In this document: positions 45,590 to 64,000 of the stretch, in pieces
Layout of the letters: each line of letters begins with the position of its first letter
How positions within the stretch are numbered: the stretch's first letter is position 1
Assembly (NCBI GenBank): GCA_965178125.1
Contig: OZ237750.1
Coordinates: 186,001-250,000 of the forward strand
DNA length: 64,000 nt
Source: Bilabrum cf. latius
Lineage: Eukaryota
Direction of reading: 5' to 3'
The notes under the pieces: generated by a model
The model's input: only the letters and a program-made list of their open reading frames with translations
What the model was told of the DNA's origin: nothing
Databases searched by the model: none
Program-made: the position numbers and the translations under genes

Positions 45590-45688
45590 GGCTTATGCAC
45601 TGGCTTATTTGCCTGCACCGGTGGATTGCATCTTCATCTTTAACACCGGACTCCGTTCGGAACAGGTCACTGGCAGCCAGCACCATTC

Positions 45689-47821: not shown

Positions 47822-47923
47822 TGTTATCCGCCAAAATGTGTGTAGTTTTTATATAAGTAAACTCTATTTCTACTATATAGTAGAAATAGAGTTATCATAA
47901 CTCCACATTTTGGCGGATAACAT
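47821..47923. repeat. Terminal nested inverted repeat/hairpin
   Basis: 20-bp arms ATGTTATCCGCCAAAATGTG (47821-47840) and CACATTTTGGCGGATAACAT (47904-47923) enclose a perfect 34-bp palindrome at 47860-47893. Confidence 0.9.
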
Positions 47924-48122
47924 AAGAGGTCAATATTAACCACTTCACAACATCTTAAGCCGTAGTCCTTCATAATGTCCTTCACTTGAACATAATAATT
48001 TAATAGCTATTTATTCATATATCTACCTAATTTAATACCTTCGCGCCGTTAATGTCTATCTGTTAGACCTTTACTTTACTTAATCTGTTGAGTGAATCCC
48101 TAGCCTAAGTCTTAGGATATGC

Positions 48123-48195
48123 CCGCCCGAAATTGCGGAAATATATAGTCATTTAAGAATATATGTTCGCAATTCTGGGCGCGTAGGTGTATTGA
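48123..48195 (+). repeat. Palindromic interspersed repeat R1
   Basis: CGCCCGAAATTGCG-N30-CGCAATTCTGGGCGC-GTAGGTGTATTGA. Confidence 0.9.
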
Positions 48196-48519
48196 GTTTT
48201 ATATTATGATTTGGTTTTAAGTATCAATTGACATTTACCACTTTAGAAAATAACTAAATAAATACTTAAAGAGATTGACAGAAGTATTAAAGTCTTTTTA
48301 ATACTTCCAATGAAAAATTTAAATTAATAAATAAAACTAAACTAATATATCAACTTAATTTATCTCTTTTTTTATTACTTGTCAATCTATACTTAAATAA
48401 TTGAATATTTAAATATAACTAGAAGGAGATATTAATCACTTTATAAAGTCTTTTATATGTCATCTCTTCAAAACTTCAAATATAAGGGTATCCCCTTAAA
48501 AATACATTCTTTTATCTAT

Positions 48520-48591
48520 CGCCCGAAATTGCGGTAATATTATAGCTATTCAAGATATATTTCTGCAATTCTGGGCGCGTAGGTGTATTGA
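48520..48591 (+). repeat. Palindromic interspersed repeat R2
   Basis: Same consensus; loop type TATAGCTATTCAAG. Confidence 0.9.
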
Positions 48592-48812
48592 TTTTTATTT
48601 TTCATAATTCTTTAAATATGTTAAAGTCCTTTGTTTGAGTATATGATATAAAGGAATACAAAGCGGGATAACTTAAAAATGATAAATGTTTTGACGATGA
48701 CTTTAAAATGACTCAATGAACTGGTTTATGTCAAGTGTATTACTTTGAAATGATTAATCACTAGATTAAATGGAAAATATAGGATAATAAAATATGGTAT
48801 AGTATAATACTA

Positions 48813-48885
48813 GCGCCCGAAATTGCGGTAATATATTAGGATATTAAGATATATTGTCGCAATTCTGGGCGCGTAGGTGTATTGA
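48813..48885 (+). repeat. Palindromic interspersed repeat R3
   Basis: Same consensus; loop type TAGGATATTAAG. Confidence 0.9.
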
Positions 48886-48985
48886 GTTTTATATTTTGTT
48901 AATTTTGACATAGTTATCTTATAGAGGTGTAATTTTGTAATAAAGATATTTCTAGTATGTGCTATATTAAATGTCCAGAAATGAC

Positions 48986-49057
48986 GGCCCGAAATTGCGG
49001 AAATATATTAGGATATTAAGAGATATTGTCGCAATTCTGGGCGCGTAGGTGTCTTCA
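48986..49057 (+). repeat. Palindromic interspersed repeat R4
   Basis: Same consensus; loop type TAGGATATTAAG. Confidence 0.9.
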
Positions 49058-49223
49058 ATAATCAATAATCAACTACTTCTTTATTTTGATTAATTTTTTT
49101 GACTTACCGTTCATTTTATTGACCACTTAACGGGATATCACAAAAAGACTTAACCACTTGACGAGATATTTTAAAATAACTAATAATAAATATGACCGCC
49201 CCAAATTGTATCTCCAGATATGA

Positions 49224-49296
49224 CCGCCCCAAATTGCGGAAATATATAAGTATCAAGAAAATTATGTTTGCAATTCTGGGCGCTCACCCGTATTCA
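49224..49296 (+). repeat. Palindromic interspersed repeat R5 (with duplicated left half at ~49190-49208)
   Basis: Same consensus; loop type AAGTATCAAGAAAATTATG; variant tail. Confidence 0.88.
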
Positions 49297-49307
49297 ATTT
49301 TACATAT

Positions 49308-49517
49308 TCACTAAGTCATACCACTTGAAGTGGTCCATTTGATCTTGTGTTCATATTTAGAATGTCCTTTAACTTGTATCAATGTATTGAGTACTTCTTC
49401 TAACTAGTCCTTAACAAATGATTTTGTCTTATGATATGTCTTGGTAGTCTTCACCTATTTAATAACTAATTTACAAGTCTTACCGACAATATACTAAGTT
49501 AATAAATCTTGTATCAT
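49308..49517 (-). CDS. Viral hypothetical protein (69 aa)
   Basis: MIQDLLTQYIVGKTCKLVIKQVKTT...; ORF exists only with TAG=Q; ends TGA. Confidence 0.55.
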
Positions 49518-49525
49518 AATATATT

Positions 49526-49933
49526 ATGTATGAGATAATTATTGATGGATTCAAATATAAACCCTCTACTCGTAGAAATAAGAAATATGATGTATTCAAA
49601 AATGGTAAGTATATCACTAGCTTTGGTGATGCACGATATGCTCAATACTTTGATTTGATTGGTAAGTATGGAGATAATAACCATATTGACCCTAAAAGAC
49701 GACGCCTATACTACCGAAGACACGGGAAGACTACCGATACTAATAGCTCAAAATATCACAGTCATAAAATCTTATGGGGAAGTGATAATGCTATTAAGGA
49801 CTACTTAACAAAACTAGCCAATGGAGTATTAGATGTAAAAAGGTATGTTAAAGGGGATACTTTGGAAAAATGGTTAGATGACTATAGGTCTAAAGTGGAC
49901 GCAAGACTGAAACAATTAAAAATATTAAATTAA
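49526..49933 (+). CDS. Conserved viral hypothetical protein of a type seen in Polinton-like and giant viruses (135 aa)
   Basis: KKYDV....ITSFGD..Y..Y....H.DPKRR..YYRRH......SKY.S.KILW motif. Confidence 0.7.
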   Translation: MYEIIIDGFKYKPSTRRNKKYDVFKNGKYITSFGDARYAQYFDLIGKYGDNNHIDPKRRRLYYRRHGKTTDTNSSKYHSHKILWGSDNAIKDYLTKLANGVLDVKRYVKGDTLEKWLDDYRSKVDARLKQLKILN

Positions 49934-49937
49934 AAAG

Positions 49938-50010
49938 TCAATACGCCTACGCGCCCAGAATTGCGAAAATATATCTTGAATAGCTATAATATTACCGCAA
50001 TTTCGGGCGC
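49938..50010 (-). repeat. Palindromic interspersed repeat R6
   Basis: Reverse-oriented copy immediately after the TAA at 49933. Confidence 0.9.
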
Positions 50011-50090
50011 CCAAATTTGAATCGAGCTTAAGACATCTCGTTTAATTAGACTTAAAAATAATATATTATTATAGTATATACTATATTATA

Positions 50091-50624
50091 ATGTGCTATA
50101 AATGTCGTAACTTCATAATCAATAAGCTAAAGATTAATGACTGGAATAAGATAGCCCCTCTATTAATACCAGCTGGAGAGACTAGAGAAGAAGACGGAAA
50201 GTGTATCTGTGATCACCAAATTAAGGAAGTTCATTTCGTTGAGTATCCCCCAACTGGTGATATATTTAAATTAGGTTCTGAATGTATTAATAACACATTC
50301 GAAAAGGATCATGATGTGTATAAGGCTTGTATGTATAAGACTTGTGATGTATGCTCTTGTGTTGTTAAACGTAGTAGCTGGAAAAGTCATATTAAATCCA
50401 TTAAACACGAATTAAATAAAGACATATTAAAAGATAAGAGTAGATGCACTGATTGCGATGAGTTCATTGAAAAACATAAATATAAAAAGACTTGTCTTAG
50501 TTGTTATAATAAAAAGAGGAAATACTCACAATGTAAGAAATGTGAAAAGTATCTTATTAAACCAGGAGCCACTTTCTGGTTTTGTTATGACTGTAACTAG
50601 AAGAGAAAGAAATATAAGAAATAA
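50091..50624 (+). CDS. Cys-rich multi zinc-finger protein (177 aa)
   Basis: CICDH..GSECI, C2H2-like CDVC...H..S.KH and repeated CxxC pairs; extends through TAG 50598 to TAA. Confidence 0.75.
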
Positions 50625-50664
50625 TGTTTAATTTACGCCAACATATTATATCGTCTTTATATAT

Positions 50665-50898
50665 ATGTACGACTTGAAAATTATAATGTCTCCCAAGTTT
50701 TTAAAAGCTTGTAAAAATAATAAAGTTATTGAAAAGGCTATAAAAGCTATAGAGGACAATTTAAAAGATGAAATTAAATTATGTTTTGATGGCAATGAGT
50801 GGGATATGTCAAATGGATCATAGACTCTTTTTTATAATCTTCAAAGTAAAGAAGAACGAGAAGAAATATTAAAGAAAAATGGAACAATTACAGCATAA
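50665..50898 (+). CDS. Viral hypothetical protein (77 aa)
   Basis: ATG to TAA with one internal TAG; preceded by the CGCCAA upstream motif. Confidence 0.55.
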
Positions 50899-50984
50899 AC
50901 AACTAGAAGAAATAACAGAAGACAATATGTTAAAAAATCGTTTAATTAACGCCAAAATTTATATCTACTATATATATAGTAAAT

Positions 50985-52640
50985 ATGACTAATAAAGGCA
51001 AGACATACACTAGAGGTAAAATATCTTACACGTATGGTGATGAACCGACAAAAAATCAAAAAGATAGTGATAATTTAGAAGCCACTATTAAGGGACTACT
51101 TGATAAAGGATTTGAAGAGGTACCAACTACCAAAGCAAGTATTAAAAAAATACCTTTATATTCTTATGTATCTTATGTAAGTAATATCAAGGGAAAGCCA
51201 CTATTTAGAAGAGGTGGGGTAATTAACTCAATATAGAAGGATGGAGACTATTTCACTTTATATAACTTAGTGAGTCGTGTTCATTTTAGCGTTCAATAGT
51301 CTAACCTAGTTCGTCTTTTTTATAAGATGACTAAAGCTTAGACGAAAAAACTTAATAAACCAACCGGTAAATTAATTGAAGTAGAAGATGAGGACGACAA
51401 AGACAAATTTAATTATAAACCAATATTAAAGAAACTATATTATGAAGAAGGTAATGTAGTCAGTCGTGATGCGTTATATGACCTAGCTAGACAAAAAGAT
51501 AAACGTATTAAAAGACGACAAGTAGAAAAGTGGTTAAATAACTAGATGCTCCACCAATTGACCAAAAAACGACCTAAACAGTCAGCAGTAAGTTCTTTTG
51601 TACCTACTAAGCCTTTCTCAATTTACGCCTTGGACTTAATAGACATGCAAAAGTATTCAGACACTAATGACGGCTATAATTGGATATTAAATATAATGGA
51701 TATATTCACAAAATACCTATGGAGTATTTCATTAAAAGATAAGACATTAGTTAATATAATTCGTGAGATGAAGAAACTATTTAAGAAACCTAATTGGAGA
51801 AAACCGACTGTTATGTTAAGTGATAATGAGTTTAATAAAGAGGCATATATTAAATTTATGAATGACAATGACATAAAACCACTATTCACCATCGCAGGAA
51901 ATCCATAGTCTAATGGTGCAGTTGAAAGACTTAATAGGACTATAAAAGAATAGATTAGAAAAGACTTTGCTATTAAGAATGACAGTGATGGTGTTTGGCA
52001 TACGTCATTATAGAGACTAGTAAGAGCATATAATAAGAGAAAACACAACACTATAGGAATGTCTCCACTAGAAGCAATGAAACCCGAAAATTTAGAAGTA
52101 GTTAGATCTAGAATTGAAAATAAGAAATTATCAAATAATTTTGACGGGAATGATAAAGATCTTAATGTAGGGGATAGAGTTAGAGTATTACTTGAGAAGA
52201 ACAAGTTTAAAGGAAATTTATTTAATTGGTCTAGAGAAGTCTTCACTGTTAGATAGAAGACCAAACCAAGAAATCCTAAGTAGAGGATTAAATATAAAGT
52301 AATGGACAAAGAGGGAGAACCTCTTACTGGATTCTTTAATGCTTCACAGTTATAGAAAATAGACAATGTAGAACACGAAGATAAGGTAAATGATGACATA
52401 GACAAGGAAAGTGAAGAGCCTGAAATTGATAATGTTGAAGGTTTAGAAGTAGAACCAGACACAATAGAGAAGTTTTTAGATAAAAGACAAAATAAAGATA
52501 GACTTATTGAATACTTAGTCAAATATAAGGGATATTCTAATAAGTTTAATGAATGGATTACCCGTAAGAAATTAGAATAGGATTATGGGAAAGACCAAAT
52601 ACGACCACTTGCGAAAGACTATTCTGATAGATAGAGATAA
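50985..52640 (+). CDS. Retroviral-type (rve, DDE) integrase with C-terminal chromodomain (551 aa)
   Basis: LYY..G..SR..LY..V.KWL..Q; YALDLIDM (D), MLSDNEF (D), NP(TAG)SNGAVERLNRTIKE (E); YN.RKH.TIGMSP; VGDRVR; NWSREVF.V; EYLVKYKGYSNKFNEWI. Twelve in-frame TAGs and no internal TAA/TGA. Confidence 0.95.
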
Positions 52641-52674
52641 TTAATCTAGTAATATACTTTATGGCATAATACCA

Positions 52675-52747
52675 GCGCCCCAAATTGCGATAATATATTA
52701 GGATATTAAGATATATTTCCGCAATTCTGGGCGCGTAGGTGTATTGA
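52675..52747 (+). repeat. Palindromic interspersed repeat R7
   Basis: Downstream of the integrase stop. Confidence 0.9.
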
Positions 52748-52870
52748 TTTTTATAATTTTATCATTTTATGTTAGCCAGTGTATAGATACGACTTTTGAA
52801 ATATTAATTTTTTCTAGTATTTACCATATTAATATAAAACAAAGTCAAAGAAATTATTTATAATAAGTAT

Positions 52871-53551
52871 ATGGAATTGTTAAATATAACAAGATACAAA
52901 AATAAAGACCTTCTAAAAAGAGTAGTCAAGTTAAGTGAAAAGTACAAGTGGTCTCGTGATGACTTAAAAATGTTATGGATTAACAAGCATTATTCAAGTT
53001 TATAGGGTGAAATAGATGATGAAGGGGACGAGATAGCAACTATAAATTTAGTGAGACAACCGTCTAAAATAGAACCTATCTAGTTAAAACCTCCACAATT
53101 AGAACGACAATAGGCTATATTGGAAGATGTTGAATTAGATAGCGAAGACATAGAGGATAATAAAGAGGAAGACTATTTGAATGATACATATAGTGATACA
53201 AGTAGTGAAGTAGTGAGTGAAGTCATTGAAGAGAAACCAATTAAAGAGAAACCAAAACCAAAAATCAATATTAGTGATCTTACAGTGAGTGATAAACCTG
53301 AATATGTTTATTGTGTAGAGATTAATGATACAAAGGTATATTTTAACAAAAAGAATACATAGACTTATCCTGATGCTTTAAGAAGAGGTAAATCACACGC
53401 TGATAAAATGAGAAAGCGAGTATTAGGACATATTCATTTTGATGAGACCGATATGTATGACAGCAACTTATGGTATGCTAAAGTGTGCTGGGGTGATAGT
53501 GATAAAATTCATGATAACTTTACAAAGTTTAAAAATATCTTATTAAAATGA
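52871..53551 (+). CDS. Viral hypothetical protein with acidic central region (226 aa)
   Basis: Single frame with four TAG=Q; ends TGA. Confidence 0.7.
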
Positions 53552-53570
53552 CCACTATATATATAGGTAA

Positions 53571-54077
53571 ATGAAAAACACAATTTGGAAGTTTTTAAAT
53601 GAATACTTTGATGTCTTTAGTTTAATACTTAAAATACGAGACGAAAACCCTAGTGATGTCATAAGTACTATAATAGCAATGTATGAAGAGAGCGAAATAG
53701 AAGACCCAAAAGAGATCCATAAACATATGAGTGAAATACGTCATAACTTGGAACTTAGATTTAAAACAAAGTATGTTGAAGTATTAAGCACAGATCACGA
53801 TGACAAAGCAGAAAGTTATCTCCATCTTAATAATATATTATGTAATATTGAAGGAGAGCAATATGTGGAGGATAGCAAAATCAAGATGTCCGAGAAAAAA
53901 CAAGTATTTATAAAGACTTACGGTGATGTGGATAAATTCAACGAGACTGTCCAAGAGATGGAACAAGAAGACGAAAAGACTAAAACAGGAGTAGAAAAAG
54001 AAATAGATCAAAAGTTAAGTCTATTATGTAATACTTCTAAACAACCAGACAATATTTGTCTAGATTATAAATTGTAA
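53571..54077 (+). CDS. Viral hypothetical protein (168 aa)
   Basis: Clean ATG-TAA ORF. Confidence 0.7.
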   Translation: MKNTIWKFLNEYFDVFSLILKIRDENPSDVISTIIAMYEESEIEDPKEIHKHMSEIRHNLELRFKTKYVEVLSTDHDDKAESYLHLNNILCNIEGEQYVEDSKIKMSEKKQVFIKTYGDVDKFNETVQEMEQEDEKTKTGVEKEIDQKLSLLCNTSKQPDNICLDYKL

Positions 54078-54128
54078 TATCAGTATGTATTTTAATTATA
54101 AAAATACAAATTGACAGGTTAGATACGA

Positions 54129-54201
54129 CCGCCCCAAATTGCGGATATATTATAGCTATTCAAGATATATTTTCGCAATTCTGGGCGTCTCACCGTGTTG
54201 A
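54129..54201 (+). repeat. Palindromic interspersed repeat R8
   Basis: Between convergent genes; tail contains the stop codon of the minus-strand gene. Confidence 0.9.
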
Positions 54202-54504
54202 TTTTTCCACACGTTTTAACTCATTCATAATTTCTAAATCAAGTAAGCCATTAATAATACGAAAATCTTTGTAATCTTGCGCCATCTAAAACATTCCTTC
54301 ATATTTAGGCAACATAGCCATTTTAAGACCTAGGATAGACTTAATATCTTCGTAGGTAATAATCTAGTCTTTTTCTACTTCTTTTAGCTCTTCAACTTCA
54401 CAAATACGAAGGTCCTTTCCATCAAAAAATTGATCAAAAGCTGTCTTTACCTTTTTTAATATATTGTTCAAACTTTTTATGTTATAAATATTATTAAAGT
54501 TCAT
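54190..54504 (-). CDS. Viral hypothetical protein (104 aa)
   Basis: MNFNNIYNIKSLNNILKKVKTAFDQFFDG...; two TAG=Q; CGCCAA upstream motif. Confidence 0.65.
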
Positions 54505-54559
54505 TTCTATATATATATAGTAAATATTTTTTGGCGGAATAATTAAACTTAGGATCTAA

Positions 54560-54632
54560 CCGCCCGAAATTGCGGAAATATTATAGCTATTCAAGATATA
54601 TTTGTGCAATTCTGGGCGCGTAGGCGTATTGA
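54560..54632 (+). repeat. Palindromic interspersed repeat R9
   Basis: Same consensus. Confidence 0.9.
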
Positions 54633-54660
54633 CTTTTGTATTATTTTGTATTTATTTGTA

Positions 54661-55299
54661 TTATATTTGGTACCCTAACTAGAGGCAATTCCTCAATTTA
54701 TCGTGAAGCTATTCGTAAGTATTATAAATGTAATAGCTAGAAGGGTTCAACTCTTTGATATAAGAGTTACGGTCTTCTAACATAGACTTCTATTTATCTA
54801 CTTTCTAATTCTTTAAAGTCTTCTAGAATAGTGAATTAGATGGAAGACATACAACTATACTTTCTTTTTTAAATAACTCATTAGCTAGACTTAACTCTTT
54901 AGTAAAGAATATTACTCTCTTCTCGCTACCTTCATTCAACCAGTTATCTTTTACCCATTGAAGGGCTTCTTTACTGGCTTTTCTATTAAGTATATTATAA
55001 TTACCCCAATCACTTTTTAACTTACATTCGTCTAGTTTCATAAGTAATTCGGGCTCCTAGACATATACTCCTAGAGTACTATCTAAATCAACAAGTAAAC
55101 AGTCTTTAGAACTAGACCGTAATATTTGACAAGCGGTAGACTTACCACTACCTTCAGGCACACAGATACATATTTTTTTACGTTTATGTAAAGGTTTATC
55201 CCATAACCACTACCAACAAGACATACCACCAGAGTATGCTAGAGGTAGTAAGACACTTAAACCTCCTACAACGACACTGCTTGAACTGATTCCATCCAT
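54661..55299 (-). CDS. P-loop NTPase/kinase-like protein with hydrophobic N-terminus (212 aa)
   Basis: KKICICVPEGSGKSTAC ... LLVDLDS; several TAG=Q; ends TAA. Confidence 0.7.
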
Positions 55300-55342
55300 T
55301 TTATTATATTAATAAAAAAGATATTTCTATAATTAAACTCAA

Positions 55343-56065
55343 TTATCCTGTTAAGAAAATACAAGGTACGACTTTATATTCTACTCCATTAGCATCAGTA
55401 GAAGTACCACTTGAAAAGTCTTCATCTACTAGAGCTTTTGCTACAATAGTCTAATCAACAGAGACTGGTTGAGGATTAGGCGCGTAGACATATCCACTAT
55501 CAGAGCTATTTATTAAGTAGTCACCCGCACTTACATCTCCTCCATTTTTATTTACTTTCACAGCTCCATCACCTAAAGATGCCACAAGTACTTTACCATC
55601 ATCATGGTGTTCTCCTACATATACTCCAAAAGGTGGTGAATGTTGAGATGCTTGACTTACGACATATTCATTAGTTGTGGGTCCTTTATTAACTACACTA
55701 TCAAGAGTAACCACTGACCCAATACCAGCTGGTAAACTAGAAGCAACATCACTACAAGATGCTACATGTGTACCGGTAAATGATAAGAAGTTGGTTGCTG
55801 TCATAGTACTGGTTTGAGTGCCATCACCTGCGACATTGATTGAGATAGATGCACCTGCTGATGCTGAGTTTTTACCTATTCTCCATGTGAAAGACTTAGC
55901 ATCTTCATTAGTACCACTCATAATATAGGGTAGTGATTGACCATTGAAGTTAAGTCCAAAGTTAGCGGCTCCATCAAAGCCTTCTGCTTTAATTGATTCT
56001 ACTTCAATAGACTTACTCTTTAATTCATATTCATTTTTGTTTAAGAGATTGTATATTCCTGCCAT
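55343..56065 (-). CDS. Putative fibre/spike protein with C-terminal intramolecular-chaperone (peptidase G2/IMC-like) domain (240 aa)
   Basis: SFTGTH ... VASLGDGAVKV...GG.V.AGDYL..S..SGY ... TIVAKAL.D.DF ... VPCIF..G; the C-terminus is complete only through TAG 55451. Confidence 0.65.
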
Positions 56066-56154
56066 TACTTATATTATATTAGCTAGACTAGATATTTTTT
56101 TTTTAAATTACGAGATTTTAAAAAGTTAGTAGTATAAGATATAGTATAATACTA

Positions 56155-56227
56155 GCGCCCCAAATTGCGATAATATATTAGGATATTAAGATATATTTCC
56201 GCAATTCTGGGCGCGTAGGCGTATTGA
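56155..56227 (+). repeat. Palindromic interspersed repeat R10
   Basis: Near-identical to R7. Confidence 0.9.
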
Positions 56228-56308
56228 TTTTTATAATTTAGTCATTTTTAATATAGCCACCTCTTACAATGTAATATTTTTAAATTAAAATATTATAGTA
56301 TATACCAT

Positions 56309-57751
56309 TTAAAGACTTCTTAATCTTGAATCTAACCAAGATATTAGAGTATCAAGTCTCTTATTAAGACCTGAACCTTCACCAGTCTTACTTTCACTTG
56401 CTCCACTAGATGATTGACCTTGTGCTTCTTGTTCTTGTTCTTCCCGTTCTTGTGCTGCTCGTGCTGCTCTTGTTCTTGCTTCTTGACCTTTACCAAGATC
56501 TTCACCTGCATCGCTTGCTACAAATTCTCCATCTGGTTGTCTTTCTAATAGTGTCCCTTCTGTCTCATCATCTAAAGGTTCATTACCTCTTGCTATCTAT
56601 TCAGCAGCTTCATTCATTACATCACTTAATGCGGCTTCTCTTCGTAAGTCTGGATCTTTTTCCTTAGCTCGTCTAAGTCTTTCTTTAAGTGGAGTTCCTG
56701 ACGGTTCTGCACGACTAAATGGGTTTGTTTGTCTTTTTCTAAGTGATAATTGTCTTTCAATATCTTTCTTTGCGTCATCAAACTTGATTCTATTTAAATT
56801 TACAAATCTAGTTTTACTGTCAAGTCCCGATTGTCTTCCAGTCTTAATATCTTGAAATAAGCTCTATAAATCATAATACTACATATCATCTATTGGCACA
56901 CCATCATATTCATCACCTAATAGTGCTTTAAGTCTATCTTTTAGTACTGGTGCTTTAGATGTGGCTTTTGTTTTATAAATATCATTTATTGCTTCCATTC
57001 TTTTATTAAGTACATCTCTTTTTAGTTTAACTCGATCAGTTTGGCTTCGTAATCGTTCCAAAGCATAGCCTTTTGACTTTTTATCTCCTAATCTTTCTAA
57101 TAGAGGTACTATTTGTGTTCCTTTTGCTCTTTGTCTAACTTTTACAAGTCTTGATGCCATTGAATTAAGTTGAGCCTTAGAGAGACCATTTAAAGTTGAA
57201 TCACTTACACCTCTCTCTTTAAGAAACTTCTTCAACTAGTCTACTGTTAAGTCATTCTCTAAGTCTTTGACATCTTTAGGTAAATTGTCTATCTCTTCTG
57301 CTTCAATAAATAAGTTATTTAATGCGTCGTTAAGTTTTGACTCAGCTTTACCTTTTTGAAATAGAGTATTAGATGAGTTCATATATGGAATATTCTATAT
57401 CATCTTAGCAATAGCTTCAGCATCTTCATCAAGTAGTTCATTATCTTTAGCTAGTCTTACAACTTGATCTATATCTGCTACTTTATACTTTTTACCTTTC
57501 TTACTGTTATCTTTAACTCTTTTTAAAGTCCTTTTCATAAGATTTGCTATTCTTTTTAATTTTCTCTTTTCTTCTAATGGCATAAAGTCCTCTTCTAATT
57601 GAATTTTTTGTTTTCGTTTAGCTTCTCCTATAGCTGCTCTTATGGCTCTCTCTTCGTTTCTTACCTTTCGTCTTGCTTGACTTGTAGGGGCTCTACTTTC
57701 CACAAGTCCATCGAGTAAGTCTTCCAATACTGCTGTTCTTTTTTTAGACAT
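56309..57751 (-). CDS. Charged coiled-coil protein with SAP-like motif, possible virion core protein (480 aa)
   Basis: Two ORF-track fragments plus the downstream region join via TAG; LTVD(Q)LKKFLKERGV..LNGLSKAQL; C-terminal GEGSGL; ends TAA. Confidence 0.65.
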
Positions 57752-57790
57752 CGTATAATTATATTATGATAATAGATAATATTATTAAAT

Positions 57791-58234
57791 TTACATACCA
57801 TTTTCTTTTAATATTTTACTTGCTTCTCCTAGACTTACGCCATACTTCTTCATTACCGCACTCACTAATTTACCTCTTGCTTTAGCTTTTGGATTAGGTT
57901 TCCTCTTACGCTTAGCCTTTCCAAGTCCTACAGTCTTAAGTGCAGCATCAAGAGGGACACCAACTTCAGGGGCTACAAACTTAAGACCTGTTCGTATTGC
58001 CTTTCCTACATTACTTTTAATACCTTTTTTAATTGTTCGCCCTACTTTCTTGAATTTACGACCTACTTTTTTAAAAAAGCGTCCAACTTTTGAACCACCT
58101 TGAACACCATTCATTTGATAGTCTTCAAATAATTCAAGTAGTTTTTGCTTAAATTCGTCTTTTAAATTGTTGACTTTGGCATTAGAGGGTGATTTACCTA
58201 GTTGCTATAGTCTTTGTCTTATGAAATCGTCCAT
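57791..58234 (-). CDS. Small highly basic protein, putative DNA-condensing/core protein (147 aa)
   Basis: VQGG.KVGRFFKKVGRKFKKVGR amphipathic basic helix; GLG motif; C-terminal RGKLVSAVMKKYGVSLGEASKILKENG of the type seen in virophages. Confidence 0.7.
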
Positions 58235-58268
58235 TATAATAAAGAACTATAATATTTCTTATTAATAT

Positions 58269-59087
58269 ATGGTTAAATTAACAAAGTAGTAGCTAAAGTA
58301 TTATTCACGATTTGATAATAAGATATTCAAGTCTTTTAAAATAAATAGAAGTGATATTTATTTAAATGGTTCATATTCATTTACTCATAATATGCTTTCA
58401 CTTTGGGCTGGAGACATAGACCTATACTCTCCCGTTAAATTGTCTGATGTCAATAGTGTTATAAATGAATTAAAGACCTTAAGAGGTAGTAGATTAATAC
58501 ATATTTATAACGTTGAATATGATGATAATGGCGTCTCTTTAGATACATTTCTTGATACTAATAGACCTAAAATATTAAAATCTTTAAAATAGTAGAATAA
58601 TCCTATGATATTCGTTGAAAGTTGGGTCTATACTGGATATATTGAAGAGGTTAGTATATTATATGATATTGGAGGTAAGATATTGAAAATGAAGCCTAAA
58701 CAAGTAGCAGATAGGATGATAGATGACATAAAAGACTTACAAAAAGAACGAAAATATTTCAAGATATTAAAAAGACTAGATGTTATATATGACGAATTAG
58801 GGCAAAAGAAGAAACAGGAAGAGATTGAACAACTTATAAAGAATCCCGATGTAGGCTTTCTTTACTTGACTATTACAAGATTAAAAAGTTTATTACTTCC
58901 AACAGTTCCATTTAAATTAAAAAATAGAGTTATTGATAGACTTAAGAATGATGTACGTAAATTAGGACTTATTAAACCAGTATATCAATACTTTAATACG
59001 TTCAATAGTAAAGATGTAAGTATTATAATTAAATATTTAGAAGACTAGCTCAATAAAAGGGTCGTTAAATTAGTTTCACATAATTGA
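58269..59087 (+). CDS. Pol-beta-superfamily nucleotidyltransferase-like protein (272 aa)
   Basis: IYLNGSYSF...WAGDIDLYS (hGS...DxD); joined across TAG TAG pairs; ends TGA. Confidence 0.65.
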
Positions 59088-59157
59088 ATACACCTAAACG
59101 CCCAGAATTGCAGACATAATTTTCTTGATACTTATATATTTCCGCAATTTGGGGCGC
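59085..59157 (-). repeat. Palindromic interspersed repeat R11
   Basis: Reverse copy; its tail supplies the TGA of the upstream gene; same loop type as R5. Confidence 0.88.
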
Positions 59158-59204
59158 CCTATATTGTGAGATTTTCATTAGATTGACCCGAAAATGTAAA
59201 ACCT

Positions 59205-59276
59205 CTAACAGCCTACGCGCCCAGAATTGCAGAAATATATCTTAAATAGCTATAATATTACCGCAATTTGGGGCGG
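59205..59276 (-). repeat. Palindromic interspersed repeat R12
   Basis: Reverse copy. Confidence 0.88.
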
Positions 59277-59281
59277 TCGTC

Positions 59282-59803
59282 TCACCAGTCACTATAAAAT
59301 AGCTCGTCAATGTCTTCTTCGTTAAGTTTATTAACTTTTTCTGTCGGATGGAGGGGATTATCTGGTCGTATGTCATGTAAATAGCACTTAAGTCTGAAAA
59401 ATTTTAGATATTCATAAATTAACTACATTTGAAAAAAGTCTTTTTTAAATAACCTTTCCCACTCAACGGATTGTTTAAATTGTTCTATACATTCATTTAT
59501 TTTCATTGAATTAGCATAGTCAAAGTTGAATGTTTTTAAGTGATCAAAAGAAGACGATACATATCCGTTATCATTTAACGTAAAGTCCATATCATAATAG
59601 TACTTTTTACTGCAATTGATAATACATTCTCTATACTTACGAGCAATTAGAAGACAAGTTATATAATTAGTATAGCAATCTACTCTATCAGTTGTCATCA
59701 TATTACGCTACTCTTCTGCTTTCTTATAGTACTAATTAACTTTACATGAGTACTTATAAAATGATTTAATATATCTTTTTGAAATTAGAAGTTTGTGATC
59801 CAT
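59282..59803 (-). CDS. Viral hypothetical protein (173 aa)
   Basis: Open with three TAG=Q; ends TGA next to R12. Confidence 0.65.
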
Positions 59804-59948
59804 AATTCTATATATTTATATGATATTTTAATCATATTCTTAAGACTGTGCACTCTAAAATGAATATTTGAAATGGCTACTTCTCACAATATACCTTTTG
59901 AACCCACTAATTATTAGAAAAATAATAAATATTAACATATAGTATATA

Positions 59949-61016
59949 ATGTCATTATCATACGATGAAATACCAAATAGTCATTTAGTTGCTTTAAGAG
60001 AATACAAGCACAAGAAGAGGAACAAAAGCGTCTTTTTTAGTGAAGATGTAGGGGAAAAAGTCATAACTCCAGAAGATATAAGTGATGATTTACTTGAAGA
60101 GTATTATGGAAAGAGAGCAATTAAATATGAGAAGAATAAAAAAGCATTACGTGAAGAGATGTGTAAGCTAGTGAATGGAAATAAAAAACTAGTTAGAAAG
60201 ACTAACGAGTTAAGAATAGATGATAAGAGTTAGTTTGAAATAGTCCCATTCTTTGATGATGAGACCAAAAGACAAATACACTATTTAAGTGGTTAGGCTG
60301 GTGCTGGTAAGTCTTATATTGCTAAGTCTTTACTCAAGTATTATCATATGTTCATTCCAAAGAAGAGGGTTTTAGTCATTACACCAGTACAGGAAACAAA
60401 TCCAACTTATTTAAAATATGGTAATTTTATTGATATTGATAAATTAGTAGCAGTAGATAGAAACGATAGTTATGATGACTTAATGAGGAAATACAAAGAA
60501 GAAAAGATATTCTTTAGGTAGGAAAAGAAGTCATTAGAACCTCATGAATTAATTAAAAGAGAGATAGAGATAGAAAGAATGAAACCAACAAGTAAAGACA
60601 AGACAAAGGCATCATTTACCACTACTCCATTGTATGAAGAATGGGCAAAATAGGGTCCTTCTGTGGTGGTATTTGATGATTATGAAGCCTTAAACGGTGA
60701 TAAAAAGTAGAGAGCGTTATTCTTAATTAAGCGTATAGGTGAAGTTGGAAGACATAGCTCAACAAATATGATAGTTATAAGTCATTTAACGAATGATTAT
60801 GCGAATACTAGGTCAATAGTCATGGAAAGTCATAATATTATTTTATTTAAGAGAAATCTATGGAAATTTAGCAAATATTTAATGAAAGCATATTTAGGAT
60901 TTGATGCAAGTCTTATAAATCGTGTTTATAAATTGTTTGGAGAAGGTAATAGATGGCTATGTATTAATAAGACGTATAATTTTATCACTTGTCCTAAATA
61001 GATGTTCGTATATTAA
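59949..61016 (+). CDS. FtsK/HerA-family (A32-like) DNA packaging ATPase (355 aa)
   Basis: Walker A YLSG(TAG)AGAGKS; Walker B SVVVFDD; EVGRH; ISHLTNDYANTRSIVMESH. Confidence 0.93.
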
Positions 61017-61035
61017 TTTTCTTAGTATTAAGTAT

Positions 61036-61584
61036 ATGGATATAACCACTGCATTAAGTCCTGAAGAGGTACAAAGACTATACTTTACATTTACAAAGTA
61101 GCATATACCAGTTATAATGTATGAAGAAATAAGTGATACTAATAACATCAGACAATTTCTAGATGAAAATCCTTTATTTGTCCTTTATTATCCTAACTTA
61201 GTAGAAGGAGCAACAATGAGCGGTCATTATACTGCGGTCATATTTAATAAATCAAAGAATACTCTTTATTTTTGGGATAGTTATGGTCAATTACCTGATA
61301 CTCATATTCCAGTCGTAGGAGGAGTCATAGACCCATAGAAGCTATATGATAGAAGTAGTCTTCTAATAGATCACGTATTAGATGCTGGTATTAATGTTGA
61401 CTATTCAAATCAAAAGAATCAACTTATATCTAATAACTCTGCCACATGCGGTCGGTGGTCAGTGATGAGGATATTATTCCATCACTTGACGAATGATTAG
61501 TTTAATAGTCAATTAAAGAAGGCTTTTAAAAAGTATGGAGGAGGACTAGATAATGATGAACTTATTACTTTGATAATTAGTTAA
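61036..61584 (+). CDS. Adenain/Ulp1-like virion maturation cysteine protease (182 aa)
   Basis: SGHYTAV (H), YFWDSYG (D), NQ...SATCGRW (Q, C); three TAG=Q. Confidence 0.93.
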
Positions 61585-61665
61585 TATGACATATACCATA
61601 AATTTTTAGATATTGAAAATTGATATCTATAAGGTGGCCATATTAAAAAGACTAAAATATAAAAA

Positions 61666-61738
61666 TGAATACGGGTAAGCGCCCAGAATTGCGGAAATAT
61701 ATCTTAATATCCTAATATATTATCGCAATTTGGGGCGC
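61666..61738 (-). repeat. Palindromic interspersed repeat R13
   Basis: Reverse copy; flank matches those of R3 and R10. Confidence 0.9.
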
Positions 61739-61790
61739 TAGTATTATACTATATCTTAAGATACTAAAATAAAAATGTCTTTGAAGTCAA

Positions 61791-62456
61791 TCAAAATCCA
61801 CGGAAAGTCTGTCCAACGTATTGTCCTCCAAACACAAGAGCTGCACCAAAAGCAACTTTCATCGTCTCAAAGACAAAATTGAGTATCGATGGCTCCGCGT
61901 TTCTCATCACCATCAACCAAATGGTAGGAACACCATCCCGTAAGAGGTGCAGGAGATGGTCTAACACGAAACAAATCCCTAGGTTATCCCCGAAACGACA
62001 TCCAGCTATACGAGCAAGGTACTCGAAGAAGGTGTAAGAGGTTAGGAATACGATCACCAGTACTCCAATGAAAAATAAGACTAGAGCAATCCTCATAAGT
62101 CCTATCAGTAAGTCCCCGCCACGATACCACAACCACCAGAGATGAGCCTTGATCGTGTTGCCTTTCGTGGACTTTATCTCGTGCTCGGTCCTCCGCATCT
62201 CTTCTTTCGCCTTCTTCGCATAGCTCTGTTTAATACGATTGATCCGGTACTTCATCTCGTCCACATCGTCTGCTTGGTCAAGAATCAGTTTCTCACATTC
62301 CTCCGTCGTCAGTTCATCATCCCGTTTATCTTTAACAGGGGCATTCTGTTGATTCTCAGCAGTTCCACCAGAACCATCGTCATATGACCCAATTATTTTC
62401 CTTCTCCTAGATTGAGACGGTTGACGGGTTCGTGAATTGGACCGGCCAGAGGACAT
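61791..62456 (-). CDS. Membrane protein with coiled coil and hydrophobic segments; compositionally atypical (221 aa)
   Basis: Clean ORF, higher GC than neighbours, no TAG; flanked by R13 and R14. Confidence 0.75.
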   Translation of the reverse strand: MSSGRSNSRTRQPSQSRRRKIIGSYDDGSGGTAENQQNAPVKDKRDDELTTEECEKLILDQADDVDEMKYRINRIKQSYAKKAKEEMRRTEHEIKSTKGNTIKAHLWWLWYRGGDLLIGLMRIALVLFFIGVLVIVFLTSYTFFEYLARIAGCRFGDNLGICFVLDHLLHLLRDGVPTIWLMVMRNAEPSILNFVFETMKVAFGAALVFGGQYVGQTFRGF

Positions 62457-62532
62457 TTTGACCCTATTTTGTGTGAATGGTGGCTAATCAATCCGATCGC
62501 AATAAATAAGATTTTTTCAAATATCACATAAC

Positions 62533-62603
62533 TCAATACACCTACGCGCCCAGAATTGCGGAAATATATCTTAAATAGCTATAATATTACCGCAATTTGG
62601 GGC
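62533..62603 (-). repeat. Palindromic interspersed repeat R14
   Basis: Reverse copy between divergent genes. Confidence 0.9.
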
Positions 62604-62640
62604 ATTAGACAAGACTTATTTTCTTGATAAATGTTATAGA

Positions 62641-63567
62641 ATGGTAGAGATTCAAGAACCAGATATCTTTTATATTAACTCATAGGATACTATAACATCT
62701 ATTAATACTAATAGACCAGTATCAATACATGAACAGCGTCAAGGTAATATCTTGACAAATTCACAAAACTACTTATTATCACTTGACCGATGGACTCTTA
62801 AATGTCGTATTCCTTTATTTGTAGCAAGTAAAGAAGTAAAGAATAGCGATAATTAGTCAATTTATAAGATGTCGTTTGTGAAGAAGAGTGATGGAACTAC
62901 TTACACTCGTAATATTGTCTTAACCAAGTCGTTATATTATAGTCTTAAGACCTTATCTAATGAATTTAATAATACTCTTAGTGATTTATGTGGAGATGCT
63001 AGTATTCCAACTGATAGTATAGTATTTGAATATCACGGTAAGACTAAAACTTTTAGTTTCACCCGTTTAGCGGCTTTTACAAGTGCGTGGACTTTAAGTT
63101 TTAACTTTCCTTTATTCTCTATATTTGAGACATTTGAATATGATGATGAAGGTAAAGACATTAAAAGTGATACTTATATAAATCTTTTAGATGGATACAA
63201 TGAATAGAGTGCTTCTACCTTAGATTAGTTTCCTACTATGGAGTATATTCAAATTATTAGTCCATCTCTTCCAATACTTCCAGAATTTACACCATCATAT
63301 AAAAGTACATCTAGTACAGAGATACAAAGTGAAAATATCTTAAGTGATTTCAAGATAGACAATACAACAGGAACAAGTTTTATTAAAATAAACTTTAGTA
63401 GTGGAGGAAATCATAGATGGCAATAGTTCTATAGATCAGCATTTAATAGTTATAGTATAGTACCGTATTTTAGAGATACTTTTGGAAACTTATACGAAAT
63501 ACCCTTTACTTTTGGACAAGGACTTAATATAAAAGCTCTATTTAAAAGTAAAAAGTTAATAACTTAA
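62641..63567 (+). CDS. Virophage minor capsid protein (penton) (308 aa)
   Basis: PDIFYIN...E.R..NIL.N..NY.LSL.RW.L..RIPLF; (Q)SASTL..FP....IQIISPSLPI.PE; YFRDTFGNLYEI....G....IK.LF..K; located between protease and MCP. Confidence 0.85.
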
Positions 63568-63609
63568 AGTTAAAAATAAATAAATATCTTTAGTCTTAAT
63601 ATATTTATA

Positions 63610-64000
63610 ATGTCTGATATGGATAATGTACCTGTAGCAGCACAAAGCAAAGTCGTAGATGACGTCTCAGAACTACCAGTAACTCAAATAGCTGACGAAA
63701 AACTCAACTTTGTGGGTGATAGTCAAGCTATTACTCTCGGAACTACCCTTGGATACTCTTCCAAGTTTCAAAACCACTACGAACCAGATGGTGGTAACTC
63801 TAGCGCAACTAATGCATTTAGAAGTAATTATACTTTCGTAGTGCCATCAAATCAAGGAATGACTGACAGTAATCCCCGTCTAAGAGTTTCATTTGACGTA
63901 TACATCTATGATAGTTAGAACAATGGAGCAGTAGCTCAAACTGATATCGTCAATAAGGTAGCCCCTTCTACATTTATGGTAAATTCAATGATCACAAGTT
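63610..64000 (+). CDS. Virophage major capsid protein, N-terminal part (truncated by window)
   Basis: Follows the penton; IADEKL..., NYTFVVPSNQGMTDSNPRLRVSF..., APSTFMVNSMITS; open through TAG 63916. Confidence 0.8.

Follow-up and report, generated by a model that had tools for sequence, protein, structure and literature searches.

A virophage with genes that read TAG as glutamine, adjoining in a genome assembly the DNA of a eukaryote that uses the same altered code

Gene content of the AT-rich part of the window

The window analyzed was a 64,000-nucleotide stretch of the Bilabrum cf. latius assembly (GCA_965178125.1, contig OZ237750.1, positions 186,001 to 250,000), and positions below are those of the window. 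The G+C content falls from about 60% to 30% at 47821/47822, being 0.55-0.74 in 2-kb windows up to 48000 and 0.28-0.35 thereafter, and in the sequence the switch is abrupt. With TAG read through, the AT-rich part carries 18 ATG-started open reading frames (ORFs) between 49526 and 64000 at 87% coding density, whereas under translation table 11 the same region breaks into fragments. A preliminary description had proposed that this region is an intact-looking endogenous virophage that itself uses the UAG = Gln code.

The left terminus (47822-47922) is an imperfect palindrome of about 100 nt, in which an outer stem (47822-47840) pairs with 47904-47922 and encloses a mismatched bubble and then an inner perfect palindrome centred at 47871/47872. 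It folds at -52 kcal/mol (z-score -11.1), and 0 of 200 shuffles were as good. The adjoining region (47923-49525) has no ORF above 69 aa and holds five full copies of a hairpin repeat (stems 48125-48180, 48521-48576, 48815-48870, 48987-49042, and 49226-49281) and one partial copy at 49199. It may be part of a terminal inverted repeat (TIR), although the right end of the element lies outside the window.

The first ORFs are on the forward strand. The ORF at 49526-49933 (135 aa, no TAG) is DUF5754-like, with a Pfam match (E 5.9e-6, 26.7 bits) just under the 27.4 cut-off. It is followed by a cysteine-rich, zinc-ribbon-like ORF at 50091-50624 (177 aa, 1 TAG), which had only a weak Zn_ribbon_6 hit (E 0.044), and an ORF at 50665-50898 (77 aa, 1 TAG) with no family. 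The integrase (50985-52640, 551 aa, 12 TAG) has an rve catalytic core (32.8 bits, Pfam cut-off 32.6) and a C-terminal chromodomain (30.3 bits, cut-off 25.1). In the PDB it matched the Ty1 integrase 7z0h (4e-5) and a retroviral integrase, 4pa1 (8.4e-5), and relatives with rve plus chromodomain at 31-35% identity sit on contigs of 16-29 kb. No family was identified for the next two forward ORFs, at 52871-53551 (226 aa, 4 TAG) and 53571-54077 (168 aa, no TAG).

On the reverse strand, the ORFs at 54190-54504 (104 aa, 2 TAG) and 55343-56065 (240 aa, 1 TAG, GC3 0.19) have no family. Between them, the ORF at 54661-55299 (212 aa, 7 TAG) has a P-loop (VPEGSGKST) read from the translation, with a weak AAA_18 hit (E 0.0042) below the cut-off. 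The ORF at 56309-57751 (480 aa, 5 TAG) is rich in charged residues and had a SAP hit (E 0.0038) below the cut-off, and that at 57791-58234 (147 aa, 1 TAG) is lysine-rich and basic. The forward ORF at 58269-59087 (272 aa, 5 TAG) has no family, but by inspection holds a G-S ... D-I-D motif of the kind typical of Pol-beta-type nucleotidyltransferases. The reverse ORF at 59282-59803 (173 aa, 3 TAG) has no family. No replication gene (pPolB or primase-helicase) was found among the 18 ORFs.

Structural and packaging genes

The packaging ATPase (59949-61016, forward, 355 aa, 6 TAG) has a Walker A motif, GqAGAGKS (q, glutamine encoded by TAG), and a Walker B motif, VVVFDD. Its matches to Pfam AAA_10 and AAA_22 fall below their cut-offs. 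However, its nearest ESM-Atlas clusters score 0.98, Pox_A32 is carried by 25-93% of the members of five of the six clusters shown, and some of the clusters are labelled Preplasmiviricota, which we treat as a lead. An identical protein (P0001) is in a public collection.

The candidate cysteine protease (61036-61584, forward, 182 aa, 3 TAG) is weakly assigned, as its only hit was to Peptidase_C57 (E 0.0045, 16.2 bits against a cut-off of 24.5), there was no PDB hit, and its single-sequence structural model was unusable (pLDDT 42). Its position between the ATPase and penton genes matches that in mavirus. The reverse-strand ORF at 61791-62456 (221 aa, no TAG), which has predicted membrane segments, is distinct in composition (46% G+C, GC3 0.49) and is flanked by two direct hairpin repeats. 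Its contig depth was about one fifth of that of its neighbours in three public runs (69 vs 378, 96 vs 505, and 4.5 vs 22), and we consider it variable cargo.

The penton (minor capsid) protein (62641-63567, forward, 308 aa, 5 TAG) matched mavirus 6g41 (E 4.8e-13) and Sputnik 3j26_N (E 4.7e-5). Its predicted structure (pLDDT 91.0) had as best fold matches the mavirus minor capsid protein (E 1.5e-23, TM 0.76/0.77) and the Qinghai Lake virophage penton (E 1.3e-18). Its identity is only 23-31% to any penton outside its own small clade. The major capsid protein gene (63610-64000, forward, 1 TAG) is cut by the window end and only its first 130 codons are visible. A 628-aa protein in a public collection, P0052, is identical over these 130 residues, matches the mavirus capsid entries 6g45 (E 1.2e-15) and 6g43, and passes the Pfam MCP_V20_C cut-off (30.4 bits against 27).

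These matches bear on whether the element is instead a polinton-like virus (PLV) or Polinton/Maverick transposon that needs no giant virus. An rve integrase, an A32-like ATPase, a penton and a double-jelly-roll capsid gene are a set shared with Polintons, adintovirus proteins are the third and fourth fold matches of the penton, and no giant-virus sequence was seen. However, the two best penton fold matches are virophages with far better E-values and TM-scores than the adintovirus hits, P0052 passes a Pfam model built on Sputnik V20 and among solved structures matches only the two mavirus capsid sequences at E up to 1, and no pPolB lies among the 18 ORFs. We therefore regard this alternative as very unlikely.

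Repeats and candidate signals

Nine further copies of the roughly 56-nt hairpin core are adjacent to genes (stems 49953-50008, 52677-52732, 54131-54186, 54562-54617, 56157-56212, 59100-59155, 59219-59274, 61681-61736, and 62548-62603), and eight of them follow the last stop codon of a run of co-oriented genes. An alignment of 14 copies has invariant arms, the folds give z-scores of -2.2 to -4.3, and there are no copies in the 47.8 kb of host DNA. A candidate promoter word, GTTTAATTW, occurs at 50040, 50626 and 50940 on the forward strand and at 54540 and 55330 on the reverse strand, each copy 39-51 nt upstream of an ATG on the gene's own strand. The 5 matches compare with 0.63 expected, and 0 of 100 shuffles reached 5, although the shuffles used the whole window so that the expectation is too low for the AT-rich part. 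No tRNA of any kind lies in the window.

TAG is read as glutamine in the virophage and in the host

Of the 18 ORFs, 15 contain at least one in-frame TAG, with 57 in all against 90 CAA and 8 CAG, such that 37% of the Gln codons are TAG. There is no internal TAA or TGA in 4175 codons, where about 174 and 79, respectively, would be expected from base composition in random codons, and the 17 complete ORFs end in TAA (12) or TGA (5). The integrase has 12 TAG, 8 CAA and 2 CAG, so 12 of its 22 Gln codons are TAG, and TAG encodes the Q of its NPqSNG motif. These data confirmed the observation of the preliminary description, whose details on the integrase and on the Walker A motif were all correct, with one correction: it had listed the capsid gene as full length, which cannot be said from the window.

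To determine which amino acid TAG specifies, we examined the residues that relatives carry at TAG columns. Pooled over 17 TAG columns in distant relatives, Q is 85 of 318 residues (27%) against a 3.9% background, a 6.8-fold enrichment, and no other residue is enriched more than 1.4-fold. Penton TAG-189 faces Q in 19 of 25 aligned relatives, integrase TAG-457 in 25 of 30 and integrase TAG-187 in 15 of 30, and the TAG of NPqSNG aligns with the Q of GNPQS in 4pa1. Close variants carry Q at 9 of 12 (P0056), 10 of 12 (P0057) and 4 of 5 (P0004) TAG positions. Not every position agreed, as at integrase TAG-308 only 4 of 16 aligned relatives have Q, and the ATPase relative P0002 has H, E and D at the three TAG positions it covers.

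The DNA to the left of 47821 carries cellular genes, including those for a CAF1B/HIR1-type WD40 protein, a carboxylesterase, a fatty-acid hydroxylase and RFC, and uses TAG in the same way. A 3614-codon ORF with TIG and FG-GAP domains holds 23 TAG and no TAA or TGA. An exon at 30660-31697 (reverse strand) encodes an orthologue of replication factor C subunit 2 (E 2.1e-111 to human RFC2, 6vvo_B), and the two TAG codons in its aligned part both face Q in human RFC2, while in yeast RFC4 they face Q and D. Codon usage differed between the two parts of the window, with TAG:CAG being 57:5 (outside the cargo gene) and TTG:CTG 26:1 in the virophage, compared with 34:177 and 64:182 in host ORFs.

We also considered whether the element is a dead, decaying insertion in which the TAGs are nonsense mutations, since under the standard code only 3 of 18 ORFs are unbroken. 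Decay would also have produced TAA, TGA and frameshifts, yet there are none in 4175 codons, against about 253 TAA plus TGA expected in a random frame. Together with the specificity of TAG columns for Gln, the use of TAG in host genes and the mostly synonymous differences between copies (below), this contradicts the reading, which we consider practically excluded.

Copies of the element in public sequence data

Contigs from two studies matched the window with 0-3 differences per 0.65-1.8 kb, apart from one patch. That other copies might carry CAG or CAA at the TAG positions had been named beforehand as an outcome that would count against recoding; of the 40 listed differences between copies, 0 fall on a TAG codon, and 21 of the 28 affected codons are synonymous when changes in one codon are combined. 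We take the close matches and these differences as signs of activity.

In public runs the element was about 40-100 times deeper than the flank. Contig depth, which is not a copy number, was 255-378 and 485-541 on the element in two public runs (X1 and X4, respectively), against bin means of 0.5-12 on the flank, and in a third run (X5) the flank was not covered at all. In X1 and X4 the contig over the left end carries 10 letters before 47821 that are the reverse complement of 47923-47932, such that the abundant form has a palindromic continuation there rather than host DNA. No contig bridges 47821 among the 32 pieces examined, which left out a further 427. Most copies are therefore elsewhere or free, and the term endogenous rests on the assembly alone.

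Based on these data, it is possible, although we think it the less likely explanation, that the virophage is not integrated here but is a free, abundantly replicating or episomal genome and that the join at 47821 is an assembly or library chimera. Against this, the element carries an rve-chromodomain integrase above Pfam cut-offs, and the join falls at the outer edge of a terminal palindrome; a preprint on Halocafeteria reports that its integrated virophages carry palindromes within their TIRs, adjacent to the target-site duplications (10.64898/2026.07.28.741278). In addition, many integrated copies plus one free form would give the same depths, and only part of the contig table was examined. 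The target-site duplication, like the TIR and the right end, is outside the window.

Comparison with known systems

The closest known system is mavirus (Cafeteriavirus-dependent mavirus), with the endogenous mavirus-like elements of Cafeteria. The penton is of the same length class (308 vs 303 aa) and mavirus is its best match by sequence and fold, the capsid protein matches the mavirus structures, and both have an rve integrase and the gene order ATPase, protease, penton, capsid protein; the element is also AT-rich relative to the host. It differs in reading TAG as Gln, in the sequence divergence of its penton, in having no pPolB in the 16.2 kb seen, and in its conserved hairpin repeat behind gene clusters and terminal palindrome of about 100 nt.

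The endogenous virophages of Halocafeteria seosinensis (10.64898/2026.07.28.741278) are AT-rich insertions of about 24.5 kb in a protist genome, with palindromes at the element termini next to the host junction that are linked there to rve integrases and non-pPolB replication genes, and hairpin-primed replication is proposed. That host has 47% G+C, its ORFs were called with default Prodigal, and the main text of the preprint does not contain the terms genetic code, stop codon or glutamine. Here the code is changed, and public runs give a hint of a fold-back form.

Among giant-virus metagenome genomes best annotated with alternative codes (GVMAGs V2, PMC13524828), viruses of eukaryotes also appear to use reassigned stop codons, and code 15 is among the codes listed in the legend of Extended Data Fig. 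3. Those are giant viruses without known hosts, the paper states that all confirmed giant virus isolates come from hosts using the standard code, and it does not mention virophages, whereas here a satellite virus is seen together with host DNA that shows the same code. The same decoupled reassignment, with UAG read as Gln while UAA and UGA terminate, was described in Iotanema spirale (Panek et al. 2017, PMC5304391), in work that concerns cellular genes only. In TAG-to-Gln recoded bacteriophages (code 15), a virus genome also has in-frame TAG read as Gln, but the code usually differs from that of the host and is carried by the phage's own suppressor tRNA, whereas here the virus simply follows the host's code. 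Our literature searches found no paper describing a code-variant virophage.

Discussion

We consider it likely that window positions 47822-64000 are the left 16.2 kb of a mavirus-like virophage (class Maveriviricetes), joined in this assembly to nuclear DNA of a G+C-rich eukaryote whose own genes read UAG as glutamine, with UAA and UGA as stops. The analyses established the virophage identity, the reading of TAG as Gln in both virus and host, the open frames and the mostly synonymous differences between copies. By contrast, it is by inference that we propose that the element integrates through its rve-chromodomain integrase, that it multiplies with a giant virus that infects the same host and is free to use TAG as well, that the conserved hairpin repeat behind runs of co-oriented genes ends transcription, as 3' hairpins do in Mimiviridae, and that the terminal palindrome serves replication or end resolution.

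The interpretation in the preliminary description was partly supported. The mavirus-type identity and the use of UAG = Gln held, but intactness holds only for the 16.2 kb seen, the protease call is weak, and the helper giant virus that it inferred, one tolerating or using UAG = Gln, remains an inference. Its statement that standard gene callers would fragment and miss such an element was partly wrong, as public protein collections already hold the full-length integrase, ATPase and capsid protein read with TAG as Q.

In our view, the virophage is translated by the ribosomes and tRNAs of its host, so that TAG is for it an ordinary glutamine codon, and under its strong A+T pressure it has replaced nearly all CAG by TAG, the same skew as that of TTG against CTG. 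This makes 15 of its 18 visible genes untranslatable in a standard-code cell, so the lineage would be confined to hosts with this code.

Coding Content of the AT-Rich Region

The G+C content of the window was 55–74% up to position 47821 and 28–35% from 47822 to its end, with an abrupt switch between the two. When the AT-rich part was translated with TAG read as an amino acid, it contained 18 ATG-started ORFs between 49526 and 64000, at a coding density of 87%. Fifteen of the 18 ORFs carried in-frame TAG codons, 57 in all, compared with 90 CAA and 8 CAG codons. None carried an internal TAA or TGA, and the 17 complete ORFs ended in TAA (12) or TGA (5). By comparison, a random frame of 4175 codons with this base composition would hold about 174 TAA and 79 TGA. 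Under the standard table the same region fell into fragments.

These findings confirmed the observation made in the preliminary description, which had reported virophage genes that are open only when TAG is read as Gln. Its particulars were also correct, in that the integrase has 12 TAG among 22 Gln codons, and TAG encodes the Q of NPqSNG and the Q of the Walker A motif GqAGAGKS. However, the major capsid protein gene, which had been described as full length, is cut by the window end after 130 codons. The first ORF of the region (49526–49933) has no TAG and nearly reached the Pfam cut-off for DUF5754 (26.7 against 27.4 bits).

Relationship to Mavirus-Type Virophages

The element is a virophage (class Maveriviricetes, or Lavidaviridae in the wide sense) of the mavirus type. 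The penton, or minor capsid, protein (62641–63567) matched the mavirus penton structure 6g41 at E 4.8e-13 and the Sputnik chain 3j26_N at 4.7e-5. An exhaustive HMMER search of 1.84 billion representatives found only 48 relatives at E up to 0.001. One of these is 89% identical, and all the others are at or below 31% over the matched stretches, apart from some short partial matches, indicating that the lineage is isolated. A structural model of the penton built on 35 of these sequences had a pLDDT of 91.0, and its best fold matches in BFVD were the mavirus minor capsid protein (E 1.5e-23, TM 0.76/0.77) and the Qinghai Lake virophage penton (E 1.3e-18).

The 130-residue capsid fragment gave no hit by itself. 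However, a public protein of 628 aa, P0052, is identical over those 130 residues, and the capsid assignment was therefore made on this database protein and not on window DNA. P0052 passed the Pfam model MCP_V20_C (30.4 bits, cut-off 27) and matched the mavirus capsid structures 6g45 (E 1.2e-15) and 6g43 (about 1e-15). As both the capsid protein and the penton matched virophage models and structures first, the presence of a capsid protein of the type found in polinton-like viruses (PLVs), distinct from the virophage type, was not supported.

The integrase passed the Pfam cut-offs for rve (32.8 bits, cut-off 32.6) and Chromo (30.3 bits, cut-off 25.1), and aligned with Ty1 and retroviral integrases in the PDB. 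Its nearest non-identical relatives are rve-chromodomain proteins of 31–35% identity on contigs of 16–29 kb. The candidate packaging ATPase, putatively of the FtsK/HerA-A32 type, has Walker A and B motifs, but Pfam gave only sub-threshold hits to AAA_10 and AAA_22 and no Pox_A32 hit at E up to 0.01. Its nearest ESM-Atlas clusters scored 0.98, five of the six clusters shown carry Pox_A32, in 25–93% of their members, and some of the clusters are labelled Preplasmiviricota, which we regard only as a lead. The candidate cysteine protease rests on weaker evidence: a hit to Peptidase_C57 at E 0.0045 (16.2 bits against a cut-off of 24.5), no PDB hit, and a single-sequence AlphaFold model whose pLDDT of 42 made it unusable. 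His, Asp, Gln and Cys residues occur in its translation in the order typical of the adenain/Ulp1-like fold, although this was judged by inspection alone. None of the 18 ORFs gave a polymerase or helicase hit, including any to the protein-primed family B DNA polymerase (pPolB) of mavirus-like integrating virophages (EMALE type), and if there is a replication gene it lies beyond position 64000.

Further database searches returned little. No relatives were found in IMG/VR for the ATPase or for the capsid protein P0052, or in JGI metagenomes for the capsid protein, and a tblastn search of the phage collection with the capsid protein gave no match. In contrast, Logan assemblies hold at least two further variants of this virophage, represented by proteins P0053, P0054, P0056, P0057, P0002 and P0004, with 72–89% identity in integrase, capsid protein, ATPase and penton. 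These proteins sit on contigs of 2–3 kb, about the spacing of the hairpin repeats in the present element, which suggests the same repeat-bounded architecture.

TAG Is Read as Glutamine in Both Virophage and Host

To determine the meaning of TAG, we examined the residues facing TAG codons in aligned relatives. Penton TAG-189 faces Q in 19 of 25 aligned relatives, and integrase TAG-457 and TAG-187 face Q in 25 of 30 and 15 of 30, respectively. Pooled over the 17 TAG columns of both proteins in distant relatives, Q makes up 85 of 318 residues (27%) against a 3.9% background, a 6.8-fold enrichment. No other residue exceeded 1.4-fold, and readings of TAG as Tyr, Leu or Glu were rejected because these residues showed no enrichment. 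Close variants have Q at 9 of 12, 10 of 12 and 4 of 5 TAG positions. Some positions did not conform, as the ATPase relative P0002 has H, E and D at the three TAG positions it covers, and at integrase TAG-308 only 4 of 16 aligned relatives have Q, although the same position aligns with the Q of GNPQS in a retroviral integrase, 4pa1.

The flanking DNA is cellular, as it carries genes for a CAF1B/HIR1-type WD40 protein, a carboxylesterase, a fatty-acid hydroxylase and an RFC subunit. We considered whether the flank might instead belong to a G+C-rich giant virus, but dropped this reading on account of these genes and of the RFC2 exon being preceded by unrelated sequence. The flank also uses TAG in frame. 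An uninterrupted 3614-codon ORF on the plus strand (16558–27402), with FG-GAP and IPT/TIG domains and C-terminal membrane segments, has 23 in-frame TAG and no TAA or TGA, compared with 83 and 91 (TAA plus TGA) in its two other frames. In the exon of the RFC2 orthologue (E 2e-111 to human RFC2), both aligned TAG codons face Q in human RFC2, whereas in yeast RFC4 they face Q and D. Together with the TAA and TGA codons that end the virophage ORFs, these data indicate a code in which UAG is Gln while UAA and UGA still terminate. A tRNA scan found no tRNA in the window.

Codon use in the virophage fits a fully ordinary codon under composition pressure. The TAG:CAG ratio is 57:5, like TTG:CTG at 26:1, while in host ORFs the corresponding ratios are 34:177 and 64:182.

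State of the Element in Public Sequencing Runs

To investigate the state of the element, we compared Logan contigs of four runs from two studies (designated by X numbers) with positions 45001–64000. Three runs hold the element almost unchanged, with 0–3 differences per contig of 0.65–1.8 kb. Run X7 yielded only 26–34-nt AT-rich pieces and was uninformative, and no RNA run was listed. None of the 40 differences examined, of 47 in total, falls on a TAG codon, and 21 of the 28 affected codons are synonymous when changes within a codon are combined. The copies therefore look as if they are under purifying selection. The exception to the near identity is a patch at 61423–61488, in the 3' part of the candidate protease gene, where 18 differences from the contigs of X1 and X4 cluster within 66 nt. 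When combined by codon these are mostly synonymous or conservative, which suggests a recombinant patch from a related variant.

Contig depth on the element was far above that on the flank: 255–378 on element contigs against 0.5–5 in flank bins in X1, 485–541 against 1–12 in X4, and 14–22 against 0 in X5. Such depths are not copy numbers, and parts of the flank without contig cover are not evidence of absence. Even so, the contrast means that most copies are not at this locus. Only the left end of the element lies in the window, where it forms a terminal palindrome (47822–47922; −52 kcal/mol, z −11) for which Rfam gave only a chance-level hit to an miRNA family (31 bits against a gathering score of 100). 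In X1 and X4 the contig over this end carries ten loose letters before 47821 that are the reverse complement of 47923–47932, so that in the abundant form the palindrome continues into the body instead of meeting host DNA. A fold-back (hairpin) end, or hairpin telomere, would give this result, but so would a head-to-head junction or a right-hand repeat in the opposite “flop” orientation. No contig bridged the host junction among the 32 pieces examined, which left out a further 427, and the junction is thus neither confirmed nor refuted by these data.

A 2026 preprint on Halocafeteria reports palindromes at the termini of integrated virophages, next to the target-site duplications, where they are linked to rve integrases and non-pPolB replication genes, and its authors propose hairpin-primed replication (10.64898/2026.07.28.741278). 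This makes the left end seen here look like a real element end. The same preprint lists a peptide release factor among the protein clusters shared by several virophage and PLV subtypes.

Hairpin Repeats, Candidate Promoters and a Cargo Gene

A repeat with invariant 12-nt arms, a conserved G-T wobble and an AT-rich loop of about 32 nt occurs 14 times in the element (between 48125 and 62603), with three loop subtypes shared between distant copies. It does not occur in the 47.8 kb of host DNA, and its pattern has no exact match in IMG/VR or in JGI metagenomes. Five copies lie in the 1.6-kb non-coding terminal region, in which a 28-nt tandem duplication (49187–49236) that includes the first arm of a repeat gives a partial extra copy at 49199. 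Of the nine copies among the genes, eight follow the last stop codon of a gene cluster. Ten of the 17 complete ORFs have a repeat stem 3–96 nt after the stop, and the other seven are followed by a co-oriented ORF within 19–86 nt, and thus each run of co-oriented genes ends in a hairpin.

Hairpin-forming termination motifs at 3' ends are listed as a hallmark of Mimiviridae (PMC6163669), and we therefore take the repeats as candidate terminators matched to a mimivirid-like helper, a role that is inferred only. Because the arms never vary, there is no covariation to support an RNA structure, and a protein-binding site or a spreading mobile repeat is equally possible. The word GTTTAATTW occurs five times, always 39–51 nt upstream of an ATG on the gene's strand, and is a candidate promoter for the integrase-side genes. 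Scans for bacterial promoters and terminators gave results at the level of shuffled sequence and are not relevant to this element.

Two of the hairpin repeats, in direct orientation, flank a putative cargo gene (61729–62498; ORF 61791–62456, minus strand). This gene has 46% G+C, a GC3 of 0.49 against 0.16–0.30 for its neighbors, and no TAG, and it is present at about one fifth of its neighbors' depth in three runs. It looks like a cassette gained by recombination at the repeats. In addition, contigs at about one tenth of the main depth join two hairpin repeats (59279 to 62528) and skip the ATPase, protease and cargo genes, which represents either a deletion variant or a false path through the repeats.

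A more far-reaching interpretation, which we consider unlikely on present evidence, is that this is one partner of a living three-way system of host, giant virus and virophage that runs entirely on the UAG = Gln code. In this view the virophage would be currently multiplying, at about 40–100 times the depth of the host flank, as a linear genome with fold-back telomeres of the flip-flop kind. Its intergenic hairpins would end transcription for the helper's machinery, and would also act as recombination points at which gene cassettes, such as the cargo gene carried by one copy in five, are swapped.

Comparison with Reported Variant-Code Systems

A literature search on virophages, giant viruses and genetic codes, which did not cover most subscription journals or supplementary material, found no paper describing a virophage with a reassigned stop codon. 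The nearest is a remark on an ochre-suppressor tRNA in metagenomic virophages (PMC6905037). A 2026 giant-virus catalogue reports metagenomic giant viruses best annotated with alternative codes, states that all confirmed isolates come from standard-code hosts, and never mentions virophages (PMC13524828). UAG-only reassignment to Gln is known for cellular genes of Iotanema (PMC5304391). 

The interpretation given in the preliminary description was partly supported. Its core, a virophage that uses the host's UAG = Gln code and is therefore confined to such hosts, is well supported by the sequence evidence. That the element is endogenous and intact is plausible but unproven, while the helper giant virus, dependence upon it, and the regulatory roles of the hairpins and promoter word are inferences. 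The claim that gene callers would miss the element is only partly true, since full-length, TAG-read versions of the integrase, ATPase and capsid protein are already in public protein collections. Nevertheless, surveys for endogenous virophages that call genes with the standard code would break 15 of these 18 genes.

Because virophages need a giant virus, the organism in these runs is a concrete place to look for a giant virus that works in a variant code: the finding points to a culture or sample in which one might be found, and it would also allow a test of whether such a code restricts host range. Changes of the genetic code have long been discussed as a barrier to viruses. Here a virophage and host DNA sharing the rare UAG-only reassignment are seen together, and the virophage uses TAG as freely as any codon. 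The barrier has therefore been crossed, and the virus has since become locked in.
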